Origin: a virus
Lineage: Duplodnaviria > Heunggongvirae > Uroviricota > Caudoviricetes
Virus record (IMG/VR): IMGVR_UViG_3300011008_000020
Length of the DNA stretch: 64,000 nt
Direction: 5' to 3' (one strand)
Numbering within the stretch: position 1 is the stretch's first letter; each line of letters begins with the position of its first letter. The translations under genes were made by a program, and so were the position numbers. Positions 20,704 through 64,000 of this stretch are shown here, one piece after another. Under the pieces are notes generated by a model. That model was given only the letters and a program-made list of their open reading frames with translations. It ran no database searches and was not told where the DNA came from.

Positions 20704-21874
20704 ATTACTCCGGCAATTAAACATTGCCGCCGTGGTCATTAGAATCATCAAGTACTCGATAGGGTGCGAGAGTCGGGTGACCAAAGTATGATTGGACGTG
20801 CTTCGGGTTTTGTGACAGTGATGTCATAAAAGCATTGGCGTTCTGCTGGAGATCGGCCTCTGTCTTGGCTTGCCGTTGGGATCCAATCGTCTGTTTCAGG
20901 TCATTGTTCAGGTATTCGTCTGGATTGTACTCCGGAGAATAGGAAGGGAGGAAAAACAGCCGGATTCGATCCTTGTGTTCCTCTATCCAATCCTCTACAA
21001 GTTTCCCGTGGTGGACCTTGAGGTTGTCCAGAATGATGTAGACTTTACGAGGAATATCCTTGAGCAGCCGCTCCAGAAACTCGATCAACTTCTGCTGATT
21101 CATGCTTTCTTGACTGAACATGAAGTGCAGTTTTCCCTGATTGCTGATGGCGCTGATCATGTTGATGTGCATCTTCCTGGCTTTCGTCTTCAGCACCGGG
21201 GTACGGCCTTTCGGCGCATAGCCTCTGGCATAGTTGGCCACATTCTGTACGGCGGTCTCATCGCCCCAGAAAATCTCTGCATCTTCCTTCTTTGCCTCGC
21301 TGTGGATGGCTGGATACTCTTCCTTCAACCATCGCTGTACCGCTTCCGGCTTTTGCTCAATCGCCTGCTTCGCAGGCCGTTGCACTGTAAATCCCCACCG
21401 CTGGAGATACATCCCCACTGTGCGAATGGGCATATCAATCCCGTACTTGTCCTTGATCAGCTGGCGAACAGCATCCCGCGTCCACAGCGCACACTTCATC
21501 TTCAGTTGATCAGGATTCTTGTCGGTGATGATCCGAACAACTTCCTTCTCCTGATTTGGTGTCAGTGTACGTTTCTCGCCGGCTTTTCTGCCGCGCTTCT
21601 TTGGCTTTAGTGCTGCCATGCCTCCACTCTTGTACTTCCTGATCGTTTCCCGGACCGTTCTCTCGCTGAAGTCAGTTACTTCTATAATCTCCTCCACTGA
21701 CTTCTGTTTCTTGAAGAGTGCGATAACGGTTTTCCGCATCTGATACAGAACTTCCGGCGTGGATTTCCGATAATCAGTTTTCTCTTCGATTCCCATGGTA
21801 TTATTATACCATGTCTGAACCTAACTTGCTATATCCTGTCGGCAATATTTTGTTGCTGAGTTAATAAAGTAAAG
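20704..21874 (-). mobile_element. IS630-family insertion sequence
   Basis: Imperfect terminal inverted repeats (20706-20743 vs 21836-21872; CTCCGGCAATTAAACATTGCCGCCGTGG vs rc CTCAGCAACAAAATATTGCCGACAGGA) flank a transposase ORF; about 1.17 kb. Confidence 0.7.
20717..21796 (-). CDS. IS630-family (Tc1/mariner-like DDE) transposase
   Basis: 359 aa; N-terminal HTH; DDE_3-like core (...ILDNLKVHHG...FLPSYSPEYNPDE). Confidence 0.85.
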   Translation of the reverse strand: MGIEEKTDYRKSTPEVLYQMRKTVIALFKKQKSVEEIIEVTDFSERTVRETIRKYKSGGMAALKPKKRGRKAGEKRTLTPNQEKEVVRIITDKNPDQLKMKCALWTRDAVRQLIKDKYGIDMPIRTVGMYLQRWGFTVQRPAKQAIEQKPEAVQRWLKEEYPAIHSEAKKEDAEIFWGDETAVQNVANYARGYAPKGRTPVLKTKARKMHINMISAISNQGKLHFMFSQESMNQQKLIEFLERLLKDIPRKVYIILDNLKVHHGKLVEDWIEEHKDRIRLFFLPSYSPEYNPDEYLNNDLKQTIGSQRQAKTEADLQQNANAFMTSLSQNPKHVQSYFGHPTLAPYRVLDDSNDHGGNV

Positions 21875-21935: not shown

Positions 21936-21964
21936 ATTATAGCTTCTTTTAGTGGTATTGTCAA
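21936..21964 (-). promoter_or_regulatory. consensus sigma-A promoter TTGACA-17-TATAAT (family member 1)
   Basis: Minus strand reads TTGACAATACCACTAAAAGAAGCTATAATATTCCAC; shares flanks with four other copies. Confidence 0.65.
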
Positions 21965-38372: not shown

Positions 38373-38422
38373 GGTGAAGTTCCTCCTTTGTGAGTGTTTC
38401 CAGTGGTTGCTTTCTGTGGAAT

Positions 38423-38451
38423 ATTATAGCCGCTAATGGTGTCATTGTCAA
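38423..38451 (-). promoter_or_regulatory. consensus sigma-A promoter TTGACA-17-TATAAT (family member 2)
   Basis: Minus strand reads TTGACAATGACACCATTAGCGGCTATAATATTCCAC. Confidence 0.7.
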
Positions 38452-38529
38452 GAGGGAAAATGCCTCTTTTGGAAACTATTTTCGGAATTTCCCGCTTCTT
38501 ATGGTGGTTTTTTCTTGTTGACACTCCTC

Positions 38530-38558
38530 GGCGTGCCTGATATAATGGTGTCAATCCG
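38530..38558 (+). promoter_or_regulatory. plus-strand sigma-A promoter TTGACA-17-TATAAT
   Basis: TTGACACTCCTCGGCGTGCCTGATATAAT followed by GGTGTCAAT. Confidence 0.6.
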
Positions 38559-38565
38559 ATTTGCA

Positions 38566-38645
38566 AGGTCGGAGGGAGTGCGCTTGCGCACGGAAGCGGC
38601 CCACATGGCGTTGTGGGCCGCTTCTCTTTCAGATGTTCCTATTCA
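38566..38645 (+). ncRNA. candidate small RNA (promoter to terminator, about 75 nt)
   Basis: Between plus-strand promoter 38530-38558 and terminator hairpin GAAGCGGCCCAC/GTGGGCCGCTTC with TCTCTTTC tail. Also internal hairpin GTGCGCTTGCGCAC. No ORF. Confidence 0.4.
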
Positions 38646-48953: not shown

Positions 48954-49040
48954 ATGGATTCACCCTCTTTCACCCCCACGCCCGTCGCCGGGCGCAGGGG
49001 AGTGTTCGTCTATGACACCGTTAGATGCCGTTTGTGGAAT

Positions 49041-49069
49041 ATTATAGCCGCTAACGGTGTCATTGTCAA
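49041..49069 (-). promoter_or_regulatory. consensus sigma-A promoter TTGACA-17-TATAAT (family member 3)
   Basis: Minus strand reads TTGACAATGACACCGTTAGCGGCTATAATATTCCAC. Confidence 0.7.
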
Positions 49070-54568: not shown

Positions 54569-54605
54569 CCTCCTTTCTGTTTCTAATGGTGTCGTCCCGT
54601 GGAAT

Positions 54606-54634
54606 ATTATAGGCGCTGTTAGAAACTTTGTCAA
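54606..54634 (-). promoter_or_regulatory. consensus sigma-A promoter TTGACA-17-TATAAT (family member 4)
   Basis: Minus strand reads TTGACAAAGTTTCTAACAGCGCCTATAATATTCCAC. Confidence 0.65.
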
Positions 54635-57612: not shown

Positions 57613-57861
57613 CTATTTGTTGACGGCCTGCCAGAGCAGGTCTTCCAGATTGTTCATGGCGCACTTGGCCTTGATCAGTTCCAAGTCCGGGATGCTGTCC
57701 AGCATGTCCTTCGTTTTCTTGACCATGTTATAGACCTCGCCAACGGTCGGCCTCGTGTGCTGGACGGCGGGTGCCGGGCGCTGCGGCTGCTTCTTCTTCG
57801 CCGCAGGCTTGCGCTTGCGCGACTTCTTCTTGAATATTCCGAACATCCTCTCGTTCTCCAT
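57613..57861 (-). CDS. basic hypothetical protein
   Basis: 82 aa; K/R-rich. Confidence 0.45.
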   Translation of the reverse strand: MENERMFGIFKKKSRKRKPAAKKKQPQRPAPAVQHTRPTVGEVYNMVKKTKDMLDSIPDLELIKAKCAMNNLEDLLWQAVNK

Positions 57862-58338
57862 TTACAGGTTGTGCTTCTCGGCGTAGATTTGCAGGGCGTC
57901 AATGACAGCCTTGAGGCTTCCCAGCTTTTTCGCCACGTTCTGGAACGCAGTAACTTCATCCGGCCTCACGCGGCCATCCGACGCGATCTGCAGCAGGGCC
58001 TTTGCCACGTCGCCCACGCCCTGCGCTTCGTTGAACAGCTTGATGGCCGTCCGCTCGAAGCACTCGTCCTGTACCGGGTTCACGCGGCCACAGCCGATAG
58101 GGCAGATCATGGCGCAGTAACTCGTCAGCAGTTCCGGCGTGTTGTAGAGCTGCGCCATGCGCCGTGCGTTGATGTTGCTCGGCAGCACCTCGTCACGTTC
58201 CCACCGCCCGATGGTCTCCGGCGAGGAGACTTCCAGCGCCTCCGCCGCACCCTGCTGGGTCGCCAGCTTCTCGTTGTAGGCCGCAGCGTTCAAACGCGCT
58301 TCTCGGAGTTGTTCTCCAAAGGTTTTTCCAACATTCAA
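57862..58338 (-). CDS. XRE-family HTH regulator with C-terminal domain
   Basis: N-terminal FGEQLREARLNAA...LATQQGAAEALEVSSPETIGRWERDEVLPS. Confidence 0.6.
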   Translation of the reverse strand: MNVGKTFGEQLREARLNAAAYNEKLATQQGAAEALEVSSPETIGRWERDEVLPSNINARRMAQLYNTPELLTSYCAMICPIGCGRVNPVQDECFERTAIKLFNEAQGVGDVAKALLQIASDGRVRPDEVTAFQNVAKKLGSLKAVIDALQIYAEKHNL

Positions 58339-58351
58339 AATCCTTCACCTC

Positions 58352-58609
58352 TCACTCGGTCTGTGCTACAATAACTTCACGGTGCTTGAATGCGTCGCGT
58401 TCAACGTCGAAGAACTCGACGGGGAATCCCAGCAGCGCGGAGAGCCGCCCGGCGACCTTCTTTGAAGGGTTGCGCTTGCCATACTCGATGTTCTGGTAAT
58501 GGTCAAGGCTGATGCCGACCGCCTGCGCCGCTTGGGTCTGGGTCATGTGCGCACCGTTTCGGAGGGCGCGAAGCCAAACCCGCTTGCTTGATTCGGTCAA
58601 TAAAATGTC
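58352..58609 (-). CDS. Cro-like XRE-family repressor (TTG start)
   Basis: RBS AAGGGGGTGA; LRALRNGAHMTQTQAAQAVGISLDHYQNIEYGKRNPS is an HTH_XRE motif. Confidence 0.65.
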   Translation of the reverse strand, partial: DILLTESSKRVWLRALRNGAHMTQTQAAQAVGISLDHYQNIEYGKRNPSKKVAGRLSALLGFPVEFFDVERDAFKHREVIVAQTE

Positions 58610-58740
58610 ACCCCCTTGTCGTTGCACTCGGCTGAAATTGACGGTATAATGGAAGTTGGGTTTTTAGCACTGATTCGCAATCTTGCGCGGTTTGCGCCGT
58701 TTGCGTGTTCCGTGGAATACCGTCAAGCTGTTATGGGGAC

Positions 58741-58769
58741 AGTATAATCCACAAATGTAGTTTTGTCAA
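58741..58769 (-). promoter_or_regulatory. cro-type promoter TTGACA-17-TATACT with CAAATGTAG operator repeats
   Basis: CAAATGTAG at 58752-58760 and 58774-58782, in the divergent region between the cro-like and cI-like genes. Confidence 0.6.
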
Positions 58770-58810
58770 TACCAAATGTAGACTTTATTTTGCTTTTTGA
58801 GGTGTTGTGC

Positions 58811-59158
58811 ATGCGACTTGGAGAAAAGGTTCTATCGTTGCTTAAAGAACGAAGGGTGCAGCAAAATGAGTTTGCAAAGGCAATCGGCGTCAGTCCAAAG
58901 ACGGTTAGTTCATGGAAAGAGGAAAACAGAAACCCTTCTTGGGATTTAATAGTCCCTATATGTAGATTTCTGGAAATGACGCCGAATGAACTACTTGAAT
59001 TTGAAGGGCGTTCTTTCGATGTCGAGGAAAGGGAAGAAGGTTTGTTGAAGCGCTATAGATGCCTTGACTTCGGCGGAAAAGCACGTGTCGATGCCTATGT
59101 AGACGGGGAGTATCAAAAAGCACGTTTGGAGGGGGATAGCACAAAGACAGCGACATAG
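58811..59158 (+). CDS. CI-like XRE-family repressor
   Basis: MRLGEKVLSLLKERRVQQNEFAKAIGVSPKTVSSWKEENRNPS. Confidence 0.65.
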   Translation: MRLGEKVLSLLKERRVQQNEFAKAIGVSPKTVSSWKEENRNPSWDLIVPICRFLEMTPNELLEFEGRSFDVEEREEGLLKRYRCLDFGGKARVDAYVDGEYQKARLEGDSTKTAT

Positions 59159-59214
59159 AGAACCGATATTCGGCAACGTATACCCCATTCGACCACGTTA
59201 AGGAGGAAGCTACA

Positions 59215-60174
59215 ATGAAAAAAGTCATTACAATCGTCATTACTTTGGCTCTGCTGATTTGCTGCGCAACACAGGCTGTTGCGGAGGATGCGTATGTAGG
59301 CGCTACCCCTTATGACTTCACCGGGGAATGTCCAGAACAGGTGTTGGAGTTTTGCGCAGAGGGCGGTTCTGCTCTCTATGAGTGGCTTGGTGTTCGCACT
59401 GTCACCTACATCGTTCCTTCCTGTGAGGGACTGGCTGCGGAAAGCTATGCGGCCATCATCAGCGGCATCACCGAGCGCTTGGTCGGAGAGACAGAGAAGG
59501 AAATGATCATTCTTGCCGACGCAGAGTTGAACCAGATTTATGTGCTGCGCGGGGAAGAATATGCGCGGTACTTCACGGAGGAAGATGCGGAGAAGTGCAT
59601 CGTTGCATCGCACGTTGAGCAGCGGAACAACATTTACGATAGCGTTACCGCGTTCTACAAGGCGATGGGCCAAGTGCTCGTTGAAAAGGAGAACGAGATC
59701 GAAGCAGCGCGAGCTTCGGAGGCTGCGGAGGAGGCGAACGACCCGTTCTATGCGGAGTTGTCCGCACAGCCGGTCTATATAAGAAGCGCCAGCCTGATCG
59801 TCCAGTCGGATGAGTACAAATCACTCTATCCAGATCTGCTTCAAGCGACCATCGTCAACAATTCCGAGGACGATGTGAAGGATGTGGTGGTTGCGTTTAT
59901 GGCATGGGACGCCAACAACCTGCCCGTGCTGATTAAGACGCAGTTCGATTTCAGCGCTGGTGCATACGTCAAGCAAGGAAACTACACCGGCGTGAACATG
60001 GTGCCGGGCAGCACGTATGGCGATAACTTCGGCTTTAAGCTGGACGAATCCGTGAAGGGCGTCGCCACAGTCAAGGCCATCGTGGTATCATACGAGACTT
60101 TCGATGGGGAAACGTGGACAAATCCACTGTATGACCAATATGTAGGACAATATGAAGGGAAGAAATTGCAGTAA
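59215..60174 (+). CDS. secreted/lipoprotein moron (DUF4352/DUF5067-like beta-sandwich C-terminus)
   Basis: Signal peptide MKKVITIVITLALLICCATQAVA; RBS AAGGAGG. Confidence 0.6.
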   Translation: MKKVITIVITLALLICCATQAVAEDAYVGATPYDFTGECPEQVLEFCAEGGSALYEWLGVRTVTYIVPSCEGLAAESYAAIISGITERLVGETEKEMIILADAELNQIYVLRGEEYARYFTEEDAEKCIVASHVEQRNNIYDSVTAFYKAMGQVLVEKENEIEAARASEAAEEANDPFYAELSAQPVYIRSASLIVQSDEYKSLYPDLLQATIVNNSEDDVKDVVVAFMAWDANNLPVLIKTQFDFSAGAYVKQGNYTGVNMVPGSTYGDNFGFKLDESVKGVATVKAIVVSYETFDGETWTNPLYDQYVGQYEGKKLQ

Positions 60175-60182
60175 ACTTCCCG

Positions 60183-60440
60183 TCAGCGTTCGGCCAGCGT
60201 TTTCCTGCCGAACTCCCGGATGTAGGGGTTGCCGGGCACTCTCGGCTCCTCGGTGCTTTCAAAGAGGCTGTCCTCCGTTTCGTGCAGCGCCATCTTGATC
60301 GCCAGCACGATTCGGTAGGACGGGTTCTTGGCGCCGCACTCGATTTGCGAGTAGTAGCTGCGAGACACTCCCAGTGTGAGCGCGATGTCGCTCTGCGTCA
60401 AACCGGCGCGGCGTCGCGCATCCCTCAATTTGGTTCTCAT
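60183..60440 (-). CDS. XRE-family HTH regulator
   Basis: RBS GGGAGGTGATACA then MRTKLRDARRRAGLTQSDIALTLGVSRSYYSQIECGAKNPS. Confidence 0.65.
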   Translation of the reverse strand: MRTKLRDARRRAGLTQSDIALTLGVSRSYYSQIECGAKNPSYRIVLAIKMALHETEDSLFESTEEPRVPGNPYIREFGRKTLAER

Positions 60441-60480
60441 TGTATCACCTCCCGCTTCATATAGAAGCATTTTTTAGACT

Positions 60481-60510
60481 ATTATAGACGCAGATGGTGT
60501 CATCTGTCAA
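60481..60510 (-). promoter_or_regulatory. consensus sigma-A promoter TTGACA-18-TATAAT (family member 5) with palindromic operator
   Basis: Minus strand reads TTGACAGATGACACCATCTGCGTCTATAAT; palindrome CAGATGGTGTCATCTG at 60491-60506. Confidence 0.65.
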
Positions 60511-60529
60511 CAGGAAGGAGTTTTGCATT

Positions 60530-60955
60530 ATGTCAATTTTCGGTGAGAGGCTGTATGAGGCCCGCAGGCGGCAGCGGATTACTCAAGGCGATCTGGCAGA
60601 TCGCGCAGGCGTCACCCGGTCGGCCATCGGTGGGTATGAGAAGATGGGAAAGGATGCCAGCTATGAAGTATTGGTGAAGATCGCGCAGGCACTCGGCGTG
60701 ACGACTGACTACCTGCTCGGCATGGACGACAATGCTGGCTGGCATAAGCGCACCGGCGTCGCCGAGAAGTTCTACGATCTTGAGCTTTACTATGACCGTG
60801 CGCCAGACGAGCAGAAAGCCACCATAGACAGCCTGCTCGTGGAGGTGGACAAGTTGCTCGCCTTCTTCCTCGCGTCGCCGGACACGGCGCGGCTGGGCCA
60901 TCTGCGTGACCTCCTCGCGGACGCCCGCAGGCTCATGGGTGATGGCAATGAGTGA
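60530..60955 (+). CDS. XRE-family HTH regulator with C-terminal domain
   Basis: RBS GGAAGGAG then MSIFGERLYEARRRQRITQGDLADRAGVTRSAIGGYE. Confidence 0.65.
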   Translation: MSIFGERLYEARRRQRITQGDLADRAGVTRSAIGGYEKMGKDASYEVLVKIAQALGVTTDYLLGMDDNAGWHKRTGVAEKFYDLELYYDRAPDEQKATIDSLLVEVDKLLAFFLASPDTARLGHLRDLLADARRLMGDGNE

Positions 60956-62138
60956 GAACAAGCCGTTCGTCGTCTACGGCGACTATGGGCGCGACAGCGA
61001 GGGCAAGCGCATCCGAAAGAAGTTCACCGGCGTGGACGAGGTGGAGGCCCGGTTGAAGAAGCGGGAGTATGAGAAGGAACGCGCCATTGGCCTGCACAAG
61101 TACGCCGACACCATGACGGTGCGCCAGTGGACGGACATCTGGATGAACGCCTACCGCTCCGAGATCAAGGGCACGAACAAGGTCTCCTATGACACATACG
61201 TCGGGCGGCTGAACGCAGAGATCGGCCACATGAAGATCAAGGATGTGCAGAACATCCACCTGTACCGATGCTTGTTGACCATGAAAGGAATGTCGAAGTC
61301 GTCCCTCACAAAGTACCGCATGGTGATTCAGCAGGTATTCCGAAAGGCCCGGCAGAACAAGGTGCTCCCGGACGACCCAAGTGAAGACCTCGAACTGCCG
61401 AACGGCACCAGCGGGACGCACCGGGCGCTTGAGAAGTGGGAGATCGACCTGATCTTCGAGAATTGGCAGGTCTATAACAGCGGCCTATGGGTGATGATTA
61501 TGCTGCTGGCCGGGCTTCGGCGCGGCGAGCTGGTGGCCCTCGACTGGGACTACGTGGACATGAAGGAGCGCAACATCGTCGTCGAGCGTGCCGCCGAGAT
61601 CGTGACGAATCAGGCCGTCATCAAGGATTCCGCCAAGACAGAGGCCGGGACGAGGGCGCTGCCGATCTGCGACAAGCTGTTCGATGCGCTGTCCACCGTG
61701 CCGGAGGCGGAGCGCAAGGGGCCGGTGTGCCACAGCAAGGGCGGCGTGCGCCTGACGCAATCCTCATATTCGTGGGGGATGCGCACCTTCAACCAAGCGA
61801 TGGAGCGGATTCTGAACGGCGAGCCGCCAATCCAGCAGGGACGCCGGAAGGATTGCGAGGACAAGAAGAAGGGCCAGAAGGAAAAGGAGGCGCAGGAGCG
61901 CAAGAGGTTTTCCATCCGTGGACACGATCTGCGGTTCACCTACGCGACCGCGCTCTACGACGCGGGGGTCGATGTCAAATCTGCCATGTACTACCTCGGC
62001 CACAGCGACATCCGCATGACAATGAGCCTATACACTCAGCTTTCAAAGGAACGCGAGAACCTGTCCCGCGCACAGGCGATCACCTTCCTCGACAACTGGC
62101 TGAAACCCAAGAACGACGACGAAAAAGACGAAGATTGA
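60948..62138 (+). CDS. int: tyrosine-type site-specific integrase
   Basis: Catalytic residues R (LRRGELVALDW), H-x-x-R (HDLRFTYA) and Y (SLYTQL); overlaps the upstream gene's stop. Confidence 0.9.
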   Translation: MSENKPFVVYGDYGRDSEGKRIRKKFTGVDEVEARLKKREYEKERAIGLHKYADTMTVRQWTDIWMNAYRSEIKGTNKVSYDTYVGRLNAEIGHMKIKDVQNIHLYRCLLTMKGMSKSSLTKYRMVIQQVFRKARQNKVLPDDPSEDLELPNGTSGTHRALEKWEIDLIFENWQVYNSGLWVMIMLLAGLRRGELVALDWDYVDMKERNIVVERAAEIVTNQAVIKDSAKTEAGTRALPICDKLFDALSTVPEAERKGPVCHSKGGVRLTQSSYSWGMRTFNQAMERILNGEPPIQQGRRKDCEDKKKGQKEKEAQERKRFSIRGHDLRFTYATALYDAGVDVKSAMYYLGHSDIRMTMSLYTQLSKERENLSRAQAITFLDNWLKPKNDDEKDED

Positions 62139-62142
62139 CCTT

Positions 62143-62169
62143 CCCGCCTGCATGGCGGGAATTTTTTTG
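62143..62169 (+). terminator. rho-independent terminator after int
   Basis: CCCGCC-tgcat-GGCGGG then AATTTTTTTG. Confidence 0.7.
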
Positions 62170-62202
62170 TGTAAAAATCCACTATTGGTGTCAATTTTCA
62201 TC

Positions 62203-62231
62203 TTGACAATGTTGCCATTAGTTGCTATAAT
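62203..62231 (+). promoter_or_regulatory. consensus sigma-A promoter TTGACA-17-TATAAT (plus-strand family member)
   Basis: CTTGACAATGTTGCCATTAGTTGCTATAATGG; TGGTGTCAAT motif at 62187-62196. Confidence 0.65.
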
Positions 62232-62264
62232 GGATTTGAAAATGACGCGAAGGGAGACAATCAC

Positions 62265-62777
62265 ATGAGCGCAGGCGACACGCGGCAGCAGATTCGAGCC
62301 ATGACGCTTGTCGCCCGGCAAGTACTCGGAGACGGCTTCGGCTATTACCTCACCCAGCGGCCACCCGCGCCCGGAGCGCATCCGAATGACGCGCACGCCG
62401 TCGTCTCGTTGGACGCGAAGATGTGGCATGACGGAATCTGTCAGGAGATTTGGGGCTGGGTTTGCTACCGGCGACAGCTCACCAACGCGGAGGTCGAAGA
62501 ATACGAGCTGCTCCCGGACGAGGACAACCCCGTGAGGTATCAACAATATGGCATCGTGCTGTATGAGCGTGTGAAGGACGCGGACGGGCGCTCAAGGATG
62601 CGGAAGACGCCGGTGACGGAAGGCGGCAGCAGAGGCGAGCGGTTCATCACCAGCTACAAGGGCAAGGCCTTCGCATTGATCGACTTCCTGAACAAGAAGG
62701 CGGGGGCGAAGCTGAATCTAAAGGTCGTCAAGCTGCCGCAGAATGGAACAACGGACGCAGCACCGACACGACAATGA
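62265..62777 (+). CDS. hypothetical protein (moron between int and the element boundary)
   Basis: RBS GAAGGGAGAC then MSAGDTRQQ; 170 aa. Confidence 0.55.
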   Translation: MSAGDTRQQIRAMTLVARQVLGDGFGYYLTQRPPAPGAHPNDAHAVVSLDAKMWHDGICQEIWGWVCYRRQLTNAEVEEYELLPDEDNPVRYQQYGIVLYERVKDADGRSRMRKTPVTEGGSRGERFITSYKGKAFALIDFLNKKAGAKLNLKVVKLPQNGTTDAAPTRQ

Positions 62778-63053
62778 TCGGAGGGCGAGTGAAGCGGCTC
62801 TGCAGTAGCTGCGACGCGGAGCGGTTCAAATCCGACACGTCCGGGAAGGTGCCGAGGGTGTTGCAGTCACCCATCGGCGCAGCCAACGAGGTTACGGGGA
62901 CTTTGAGGCTTAAACTGTAAGACAACCCGGTGGCAGCTCGGAAAGACGGCAGCGGGGCTTCACCGTGTGGATTGCCGGGAAGCACCTGCATCGGCTGGCC
63001 GGGTTGCCGCCCGGCTGGCCCTCCAAGAGTGCTGAGAGGAGGTGGAGGCGGTG

Positions 63054-63320: not shown

Positions 63321-63388
63321 ATGCGGCCCACATATTGAGCTCTGCCGAATGACCGGGCTGGACGATGGGTTATCCAGCCCGGAGTTAT

Positions 63389-63465
63389 GGGAAGGTACGC
63401 TAAGAGAACGCGGAGATCGGGGAGACACGATCTGATTGTTGGTTCAAACCCAACCCTTCTCACCA
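63389..63465 (+). other. tRNA-like element 1 (7-bp acceptor, T-arm, ACCA; aberrant 8-nt anticodon loop)
   Basis: GGGAAGG...GTTGG-TTCAAAC-CCAAC-CCTTCTC-A-CCA; anticodon stem AGATCG/CGATCT with loop GGGAGACA. Confidence 0.35.
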
Positions 63466-63625: not shown

Positions 63626-63707
63626 GGGAATGTAGCGTAATTTGGTAACGCACACAGGCGGTGCACCTAACCTGCGGTTGTCGGTTCGAATCCGAACATT
63701 CCCACCA
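63626..63707 (+). other. tRNA-like element 2 (7-bp acceptor, D-arm, T-arm GGTTCGAATCC, ACCA; no canonical anticodon arm)
   Basis: GGGAATG/CATTCCC acceptor; D-stem GCGT/ACGC; variable-arm-like AACC-tgc-GGTT. Confidence 0.35.
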
Positions 63708-63924: not shown

Positions 63925-64000
63925 ATGGCACATGAAGCAAGCCAGAGCGAAGTCACAGCCGCCTTGAAGCGGCTCGGCAAATATCGCGGCCAGCTCAGTT
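63925..64000 (+). CDS. partial CDS (N-terminus only; continues beyond window)
   Basis: RBS AAAGGAGGAAGC then ATG; MAHEASQSEVTAALKRLGKYRGQLS. Confidence 0.45.
   Translation, partial: MAHEASQSEVTAALKRLGKYRGQLS

Follow-up and report, generated by a model that had tools for sequence, protein, structure and literature searches.

Two divergent XRE genes beside a phage integrase gene as the candidate control module of a dispersed regulon

A divergent XRE gene pair precedes the integrase gene

The stretch of DNA analysed here, 64,000 nucleotides of the Caudoviricetes record IMGVR_UViG_3300011008_000020 (hereafter the window), carries two divergently oriented genes for XRE-type proteins next to an integrase gene. 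All positions are window coordinates unless a locus with an L-number is named. A first-pass annotation had described an immunity-like switch at this site, in which two XRE genes flank an 89-bp region carrying a perfect TTGACA-18-TATAAT promoter and a palindrome. The gene pair (60183-60440 on the minus strand and 60530-60955 on the plus strand, here called XRE85 and XRE141) was confirmed, both products matching Pfam HTH_3, as was the promoter, which lies on the minus strand and fits the consensus at 12 of 12 positions. The features of this region are:

60440..60183, minus strand: XRE85, an 85-aa Cro-like HTH_3 protein (Pfam HTH_3 E 1.6e-10), with ribosome-binding site (RBS) GGAGGTG
60530..60955, plus strand: XRE141, a 141-aa candidate CI/ImmR-like repressor (Pfam HTH_3 E 2.8e-14), with AGGAAGGAG upstream
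60948..62138, plus strand: tyrosine integrase (int), 396 aa (Pfam Phage_integrase E 1.4e-17)
62141..62161, plus strand: intrinsic terminator closing the XRE141-int operon, an 8-bp stem followed by T7 (-15.7 kcal/mol, z-score -3.6)
60481..60510, minus strand: promoter P_XRE85, with TTGACA at 60510..60505, an 18-nt spacer and TATAAT at 60486..60481
60487..60504, minus strand: candidate spacer operator gATGACACCATCTGCGTC, a member of a dispersed operator family
60456..60485, plus strand: weak, predicted XRE141-int promoter, TTCATA-18-TATTAT, 9/12
60491..60506: palindrome CAGATG-N4-CATCTG, CAGATGGTGTCATCTG
60454..60468: GCTTC-N5-GAAGC, a palindrome, or else a small hairpin with a T-run after it; lies within the XRE85 5' leader and covers the -35 element of the candidate plus-strand promoter

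The two genes are separated by 89 bp (60441-60529), and the helix-turn-helix (HTH) regions of their products are 41% identical. XRE141 combines an N-terminal HTH with a three-helix C-terminal domain in an AlphaFold2 (AF2) model (pLDDT 75.8). Its best sequence match in the Protein Data Bank (PDB) is the DNA-binding domain of ICEBs1 ImmR (7t8i, E 1e-9), and in sequence and fold searches its HTH is best matched by ImmR, P22 C2 and the 434 repressor, with 434 Cro also among the fold matches. The fold search returned no solved counterpart for the C-terminal helices, leaving only the HTH half explained, and the Pfam search found no Peptidase_S24 domain in this protein.

The ATG of the integrase gene (60948) lies inside the XRE141 stop region, ATGAGTGA, giving an overlap of 8 nt. 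Nothing is encoded between the two genes, and the operon includes no ImmA gene. XRE141 and int, whose pairing is kept in all relatives examined, thus appear from their arrangement to be translationally coupled within one operon. In an alignment with Tn1549 Int (6emy), the integrase retains GLRxxEL, KT..G.R, HxLR, GHS and LY, all intact.

XRE85 is monocistronic and convergent with a DUF5780 gene, so it does not head a lytic operon in the window. Its recognition helix (SRSYYSQIE) and C-terminal motif (GNPYIRE) are both conserved. The tail of the protein (60183-60260; PGNPYIREFGRKTL in the window) follows the pattern (R/P)G(N/A/H)P(Y/F), and this motif is kept in all phages with two switches, down to L019, and is missing from X64, the 64-aa orthologue in L017. 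The tail may be a protein-contact peptide.

The gap holds a perfect promoter and two palindromes

The window contains eight perfect 12/12 promoters, against about 0.007 expected from simple arithmetic on base composition, so P_XRE85 is far beyond chance. Both of its hexamers are invariant in all relatives (XRE141 identity 51-100%). The -10 element of the candidate plus-strand promoter overlaps that of P_XRE85 and is only partly conserved in the relatives.

The palindrome named in the first-pass annotation is present at 60491-60506, but its proposed meaning does not hold. A perfect inverted repeat with 6-bp arms arises in 16% of shuffles of the 89-bp gap. The palindrome has no second copy in the 64 kb, where two matches with up to two mismatches were found and 3.9 were expected. 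It is confined to the identical copies L001-L003 and is gone in all other relatives; in L016 (XRE141 82% identical) these positions carry CTAATGGTGTCATCTG. We therefore rejected it as an operator, being neither conserved nor recurrent and about 16% likely by chance. The sequence that is conserved here is the promoter spacer (60487-60504), which overlaps it.

The arms of GCTTC-N5-GAAGC are invariant across the main clade; L010 has CCAAC-TCT-ATTGG at this place and a sub-clade lacks the element. Its folding energies on the two strands are -6.1 and -6.7 kcal/mol, and as a terminator this hairpin was rejected as too weak. It is the sole exact intergenic copy in the window, with no other convincing intergenic copy found, and GACGC-N5-GCGTC likewise has no other convincing intergenic copies there. 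A general repeat search of 58300-62300 gave nothing useful.

The P_XRE85 spacer element recurs at distant promoters

A search of the window for the core TGGTGTCA returned seven exact copies against 1.9 expected, and following these up revealed a complete second copy of the promoter at 38451..38423. The 12-mer TGACACCATTAG, with up to two mismatches allowed, occurs 14 times, compared with 3.2 expected and a shuffle maximum of 7. Eleven of these 14 matches lie at or beside promoters or in other plausible regulatory contexts, one being an inverted copy downstream of P49069. The candidate regulon promoters other than P_XRE85 are:

38423..38451, minus strand: P38451, perfect; spacer ATGACACCATTAGCGGC
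49013..49069, minus strand: P49069, heading the replication module; spacer ATGACACCGTTAGCGGC; inverted motif copy at 49013-49024
54583..54634, minus strand: P54634, before a DUF6011 gene; spacer AAGTTTCTAACAGCGCC; motif copy downstream at 54583-54594
62182..62231, plus strand: P_DarA_C (P62203), TTGACA-17-TATAAT; spacer ATGTTGCCATTAGTTGC at 62209-62225; second motif copy upstream at 62182-62193

Related spacers therefore occur at 38451, 49069, 54634, 60510 and 62203, as they do in the relatives, and reach promoters up to 22 kb from the XRE85/XRE141 pair. They account for 4-5 of the 8 perfect promoters of the window, with pairwise identities of 9-16 of 17 positions. The P_XRE85 spacer is identical to those of P38451 and P49069 at 13-14 of 17 positions; that of P54634 resembles the family more weakly and has the right half in common. 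Because three other strong promoters (PL at 58769, P22579 and P38518) have unrelated spacers, matching the family at only 2-7 of 17 positions, the operator-type spacer is not a general feature of promoters in this DNA.

Other similarities among the perfect promoters lie outside the spacer. At four of them (21936-21964, 38423-38451, 49041-49069 and 54606-54634) the sequence continues as TATAAT-ATTCCAC(G/A), and the PL leader (58710-58721) carries GGTATTCCACGG about 25 nt past the -10 element. Both are conserved in the relatives and may represent a shared leader or start-site signal.

The candidate operator and the XRE141 recognition helix vary together

Products encoded in the window, almost all by minus-strand genes, include replication proteins and nucleotide-metabolism enzymes as well as a portal protein, a small terminase subunit, a Mu-F-like protein and an SbcCD-like nuclease. 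The element is a large phage. Among 50,697 phage records, the DNA of 57800-62800 had no match, and the portal protein was at most 51% identical to anything. A scan of IMG/VR added 3 loci and a metagenome scan added 12. The closest homologues of XRE141 among known phages, at 30-40% identity, are lysogeny-module repressors, each divergent from a small XRE gene.

XRE141 belongs to a small family of homologues with 51-100% identity, and gene order is constant on the relatives' contigs: CI-like, cargo, XRE~80 (reversed), XRE~142, integrase and DarA_C. In relatives with enough sequence, P_XRE85, P_DarA_C and the DUF6011 promoter are all perfect, and each phage has its own spacer variant in all three. 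The family consensus is GACGCT-N3-AGCGTC, which occurs as a perfect palindrome preceded by AT in L004, L005, L006, L007 and L012, the form that would be expected for a dimeric HTH protein. P_DarA_C carries the consensus operator ATGACGCTATTAGCGTC in L005-L007, and the DUF6011 promoter homologue of the relatives has the right half, TTAGCGTC. Three classes of operator can be distinguished:

Main clade: half-site GACGCT.., XRE141 helix RSAIGGYE
L010/L011 (and L017): half-site GCC[AC]C.., XRE141 helix RSAISGYE
Sub-clade L113, L114, L116 and L019: GCCC[CT]-N5-GGGGC, XRE141 helix R[SQ]NIQGYE

These patterns favour XRE141 as the predicted reader of the spacer operator, possibly together with XRE85. 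Three other proteins encoded nearby were judged unlikely for this role: XRE158 because its helix (PETIGRWER) is the same in all operator classes, the CroL protein because two of its helix types (L004 versus L005) occur within one class, and the CI-like protein because its HTH is swapped with the regulon operators unchanged.

The same observations bear on the proposal that neither XRE85 nor XRE141 reads the spacer, which would instead be a CroL site, a site for another phage factor or a means of tuning promoter strength, the gene pair merely adjoining one copy. Such a reading would suit the asymmetry and single strand orientation of the window sites, and the shared TATAAT-ATTCCAC start regions hint at cassette-like promoters. 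The helix comparisons just given for CroL, XRE158 and the CI-like protein speak against it, as do the unrelated spacers of the remaining strong promoters and the distant relative L017, which keeps the operator with only its X64/X200 pair nearby. We consider this proposal improbable and retain XRE141 as the likely reader.

The neighbouring CI-like/PL module is exchanged between close relatives

The first-pass annotation had also noted a Cro/CI-like pair nearby that uses a different operator word, twice. This word, CAAATGTAG, does occur at both 58752-58760 and 58773-58781, once inside the spacer of PL and once just upstream of its -35 element. The PL spacer matches XRE141-type spacers at 5-6 of 17 positions, which supports the view that two separate repressor/operator systems stand side by side. 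The module comprises:

58352..60174: the whole variable module
58352-58627, minus strand: CroL
58741-58769, minus strand: PL, with the two CAAATGTAG words
58811-59158, plus strand: the CI-like gene
59215-60174, plus strand: DUF5780 cargo, encoding a secreted protein

L005 and L006 encode an identical XRE141 homologue (143 aa), and their DNA is 96.7% identical up to the -10 element of PL. Similarity is then lost over the PL spacer, the -35 element, the gap and the N-terminal HTH of the CI-like gene, and returns at 94.5% within the cargo gene. Similarity between the window and L016 breaks in the same region (58750-59010); the N-terminal halves of their CI-like proteins are unrelated and the C-terminal halves near-identical. 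The PL spacer and the CI-like HTH are exchanged as one block between close relatives, and the PL spacer differs with each type, with the regulon operators remaining constant. From its sequence pattern, the CI-like/PL module looks to be a hypervariable immunity-specificity cassette of classical behaviour.

The slot between the CI-like gene and XRE85 holds varied cargo across the phages:

Window 59215-60174: DUF5780
L113 4562-5851: SNIPE/T5orf172 nuclease and DUF5780
L116 3775-5133: a 452-aa PG_binding_1 protein

With these contents, the slot appears to be a preferred site for exclusion or defence genes that lysogens express. A scan of the window found no terminator separating DUF5780 from XRE85, and only a -6 kcal/mol hairpin before XRE141. 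The defence-like cargo adjoining XRE85 in L113, along with the resemblance of the XRE141 HTH to the CapH and DdrO folds, raises the idea that the pair, like those proteins, controls a defence or toxin-antitoxin cassette. No toxin or protease gene lies in the operon, int is in every case the gene co-transcribed with XRE141, and the cargo lies in another operon and differs between phages. We give this idea hardly any credence.

The second gene of the PL operon, XRE158 (57862-58338), encodes an HTH together with a conserved cysteine-rich stretch, YCAMxCPxGxGR, and is strongly conserved throughout the clade and also in L017; it could be an early regulator or an antirepressor. The small PL-operon genes, including XRE158 and one with an 82-aa product, yielded no informative domain in the Pfam search.

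The integrase-side pair is the conserved switch

The first-pass annotation had treated the XRE85/XRE141 pair as a second switch beside the Cro/CI-like one and had raised its acquisition as one possibility. Comparison with relatives reverses this picture. Every clade member that was examined has both switches, even at only 35% XRE141 identity, and the integrase-side pair is the conserved and canonical one, with the Cro/CI-like module being mosaic. An acquired second immunity region or a nested integrative satellite might be suspected, given that XRE141, int and XRE85 look like a minimal lysogeny module. This module is found at one and the same place in all clade members, across identities of 35% to 100%, its GC content is similar to that of its surroundings, its operator is embedded in the promoters of backbone genes, and the module that behaves as mobile is the neighbouring CI-like block. 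We regard acquisition of either kind as very improbable, and on synteny the nested satellite was rejected together with the toxin-antitoxin reading.

The distant loci L017 and L018 carry a pair formed by X64 (48% identical to XRE85) and X200 (33% identical to XRE141, the C-terminal part included). This orthologous pair is the sole switch seen there: X64 directly heads the lytic arm, with the XRE158 homologue next, its promoter has the operator in the spacer, and X200 is followed by a serine recombinase. Two histories would explain the difference: insertion of the CI-like/CroL/cargo block between XRE85 and the operon it once headed, or loss of the block from L017; two lineages are too few to decide the direction. 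Under either direction, the integrase-side pair would not be an add-on.

L017 also bears on the proposal of a purely local integrase switch, in which XRE141 autoregulates XRE141-int, XRE85 acts as both repressor and excision directionality factor in the manner of P2 Cox or 186 Apl, and the other spacers are duplicated promoter cassettes read by another protein. The conserved XRE85 tail is absent from X64, found where the recombinase is a serine enzyme, and this would suit such a role, as would the monocistronic nature of XRE85 and the constant linkage, with an 8-nt overlap in the window, of XRE141 and int. Yet the spacer element covaries with the XRE141 helix over three classes, Pfam places XRE85 in HTH_3 and in no excisionase family, and the strong terminator cuts int off from downstream genes, yet the next promoter has the same operator. 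A purely local switch is in our view unlikely.

A master repressor with a dispersed regulon is the favoured reading

We think it probable that the 89-bp gap is the control region of a conserved lysogeny-type module, in which XRE141 would be the master repressor of a dispersed regulon and XRE85 its Cro-like counterpart, with a variable second repressor module alongside. The earlier suggestion of a master repressor plus a switch fits this evidence. A dimer of XRE141 would bind the 15-17-bp element that fills the -35/-10 spacer of P_XRE85, excluding RNA polymerase and turning off the divergent XRE85 gene. The same binding at P_DarA_C and, in the leftward arm, at 54634, 49069 and 38451, all of them at the head of transcription units, would silence the dispersed regulon. 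Because the XRE141 RBS begins at 60513, the XRE141 transcript must start at or to the left of about 60510. The spacer site would then lie at or just past any XRE141 start point, and its occupation would limit XRE141-int expression too. Such self-limiting expression is known from ImmR and controller-protein circuits (PMC9956884).

XRE85 would be an early product, because it is made from a regulon-type promoter, and on the simplest reading it probably competes for the same operators in the fashion of Cro. XRE141-int might be transcribed from the weak overlapping promoter or by read-through of the CI-like operon across antisense XRE85. The CI-like/PL module would set immunity specificity at the main leftward early promoter.

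Several points weigh against this interpretation. The seven exact TGGTGTCA cores are all on the plus strand, regardless of the direction of the nearby promoter, which is odd for a symmetric site, and the window operators are less symmetric (GACACC-ATT-AGCGGC) than expected of a dimer site. The covariation of helix and operator rests on three operator classes, and the XRE85 helix varies across these classes too (YYSQ, YYSM, HYSQ), so XRE85 alone could be the reader; its HYSQ type is common to L017 and the sub-clade, though their operators differ in one half. A convincing promoter for XRE141 itself is lacking (best 9/12). The Pfam search of window proteins recognized no antirepressor, ImmA-type protease, or S24 or LexA-like cleavage domain. 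The operator survey covers the 64-kb window, which is part of a genome of about 100 kb. Gene anatomy, promoter and operator conservation, operator recurrence and module swapping are observed; all DNA binding, and with it the identity of the binding protein, the direction of regulation and the coupling of the two systems, is inferred.

In a more elaborate and much more tentative scheme, uncultivated Clostridia-type phages of about 100 kb would have a P1-like bipartite immunity that is hierarchical and uses XRE proteins only. The CI-like protein would set specificity at PL and XRE141 would silence perfect promoters genome-wide. XRE141-int may have no dedicated promoter and depend on transcripts of the CI-like operon that continue through the cargo slot and run antisense to XRE85. 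Transcription from P_XRE85 would then interfere convergently with this read-through and keep the repressor and integrase from being made, and XRE141, by repressing P_XRE85, would complete a loop of positive feedback.

Comparison with known systems

In the CI/Cro modules of Firmicutes phages (Latilactobacillus phage TMW 1.2272 P1 and Bacillus phage Gamma/Wbeta), the integrase side likewise holds the gene of an XRE repressor, and a small XRE gene diverges from it. The window has two HTH_3 proteins encoded by divergent genes and a quasi-palindromic element, putatively an operator, in the P_XRE85 spacer. In contrast to those modules, the Cro-like gene is here severed from the lytic operon by the second repressor module (only X64 in L017/L018 heads that operon), XRE141 lacks the S24 autocleavage domain, and the putative operator occupies the promoter spacer and recurs at other sites of the genome.

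The immR-immA-int region of ICEBs1 also places an XRE repressor gene and the integrase gene on one transcript, and the repressor shuts off a strong promoter that points the other way; for the phage this repression is presumed. The same ICEBs1 circuit also drives int (PMC9956884), and the ImmR DNA-binding domain is the best XRE141 match in the PDB (PMC8960796). ICEBs1 differs in being a conjugative element rather than a phage of about 100 kb, in having ImmA, and in that its divergent gene encodes an excisionase whereas the one here encodes an XRE protein. By gene family, the arrangement appears to be an XRE CI/Cro-type module with an ImmR-like repressor-integrase link and without ImmA, Xis or S24.

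Dispersed operators have precedents. The C1 master repressor of P1 has 22 asymmetric 17-bp sites dispersed over the genome (PMC8546580). Like the phage described here, with its candidate master repressor, P1 is large and has more than one immunity determinant. P1 and P7 have a compatible C1 in common and differ at immI, which parallels the conserved XRE141 and the variable CI-like module. In contrast, C1 is a non-XRE protein, P1 immI acts via antisense RNA and an antirepressor, none identified here, and P1 is a plasmid prophage. The antirepressor control of P22 immI likewise has no identified counterpart.

In SPbeta (MrpR, or YopR, acting at SPBRE) and with the stoperators of Cluster A mycobacteriophages, a 13-15-bp element repeated in the promoter or intergenic regions of a large temperate phage is bound by a master repressor (PMC10516654; PMC9283540; PMC6550527). 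The strand-biased orientation of the motif here recalls stoperators, whose repressor binds as a monomer using two domains (PMC9283540). MrpR has a tyrosine-recombinase fold, whereas the candidate here would be a small XRE dimer, and the best copies here lie exactly in promoter spacers rather than within genes. XRE141 is a plain HTH_3 protein with no homology to C1, MrpR or gp71, so the resemblance is one of working principle.

The P2 C-int/Cox and 186 cI-int/Apl regions place repressor and integrase on one transcript; it is opposed by a strong promoter, and the first gene read from that promoter encodes a small DNA-binding protein. Those promoters face each other, whereas P_XRE85 points away from the candidate XRE141 promoter and their -10 elements overlap; convergence would arise here only if the CI-like operon reads through. 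Multi-part immunity and dispersed operators were known already (P1, P22, SPbeta, mycobacteriophages), and the arrangement here would be a variant of bipartite phage immunity.

The phage beyond the integrase

The label of prophage is not supported. The relatives' contigs cluster at 100-104 kb and start at differing points, and their DNA past the integrase is phage DNA (a sliding-clamp gene, many small genes and the gene for single-stranded DNA-binding protein (SSB)), with no host DNA. The window is homologous to them from 62.1 to 64.0 kb, through base 64000 and including a tRNA-His gene. This homology places the integrase within the map of the phage, as would be the case for a circular or a virion form, and does not support a prophage boundary. 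Among species-representative genomes (one per species) there was no host and no integrated copy to be found, only generic HTH matches of at most 35% identity over full length. Neither attP nor attB was found.

The tRNA-His gene (63626-63707) is phage-borne and 85% conserved in L005; an Rfam scan returned tRNA only. A stretch at about 63370-63465, ending GGTTCAAACCCAACCCTTCTCACCA, resembles a tRNA 3' end, where ARAGORN and Rfam make no call, and could be a tRNA remnant or the core of an attachment site. In two relatives a Ro60/TROVE-vWA gene adjoins the integrase (L114 1363-2811 and L116 308-1753). Bacterial Ro60 proteins usually partner with tRNA-like Y RNAs, and the integrase-side region of these phages is rich in tRNA-like sequence.

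Two further perfect promoters have other surroundings. A 266-bp gap at 38373-38638 holds P38451 (minus) and P38518 (plus) back to back. P38518 faces the 3' end of a minus-strand gene, has GGTGTCAAT directly after its -10 element and is followed only by a possible 34-aa open reading frame; it may drive an antisense or small RNA. A DDE_3 transposase gene (20717-21796, Pfam E 3e-41) lies directly downstream of the regulon-like perfect promoter P21964; it probably represents an insertion sequence that inserted just after a promoter of the phage.

Implications

The architecture described here is clear and unsurprising in principle, and it does not overturn current ideas; its functional statements are predictions. 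If the favoured reading is true, it would provide a regulatory map for a family of large gut and rumen phages that has no cultured member or close sequenced relative. This map would consist of one conserved repressor, predictable operators heading each transcription unit, an exchangeable immunity cassette, and a slot that takes up exclusion or defence cargo. Immunity groups, lysogen-silent genes and the insertion sites of accessory genes would then be predictable from sequence, and the regulon would offer compact, very strong and repressible promoter-operator cassettes for high-GC Clostridia.

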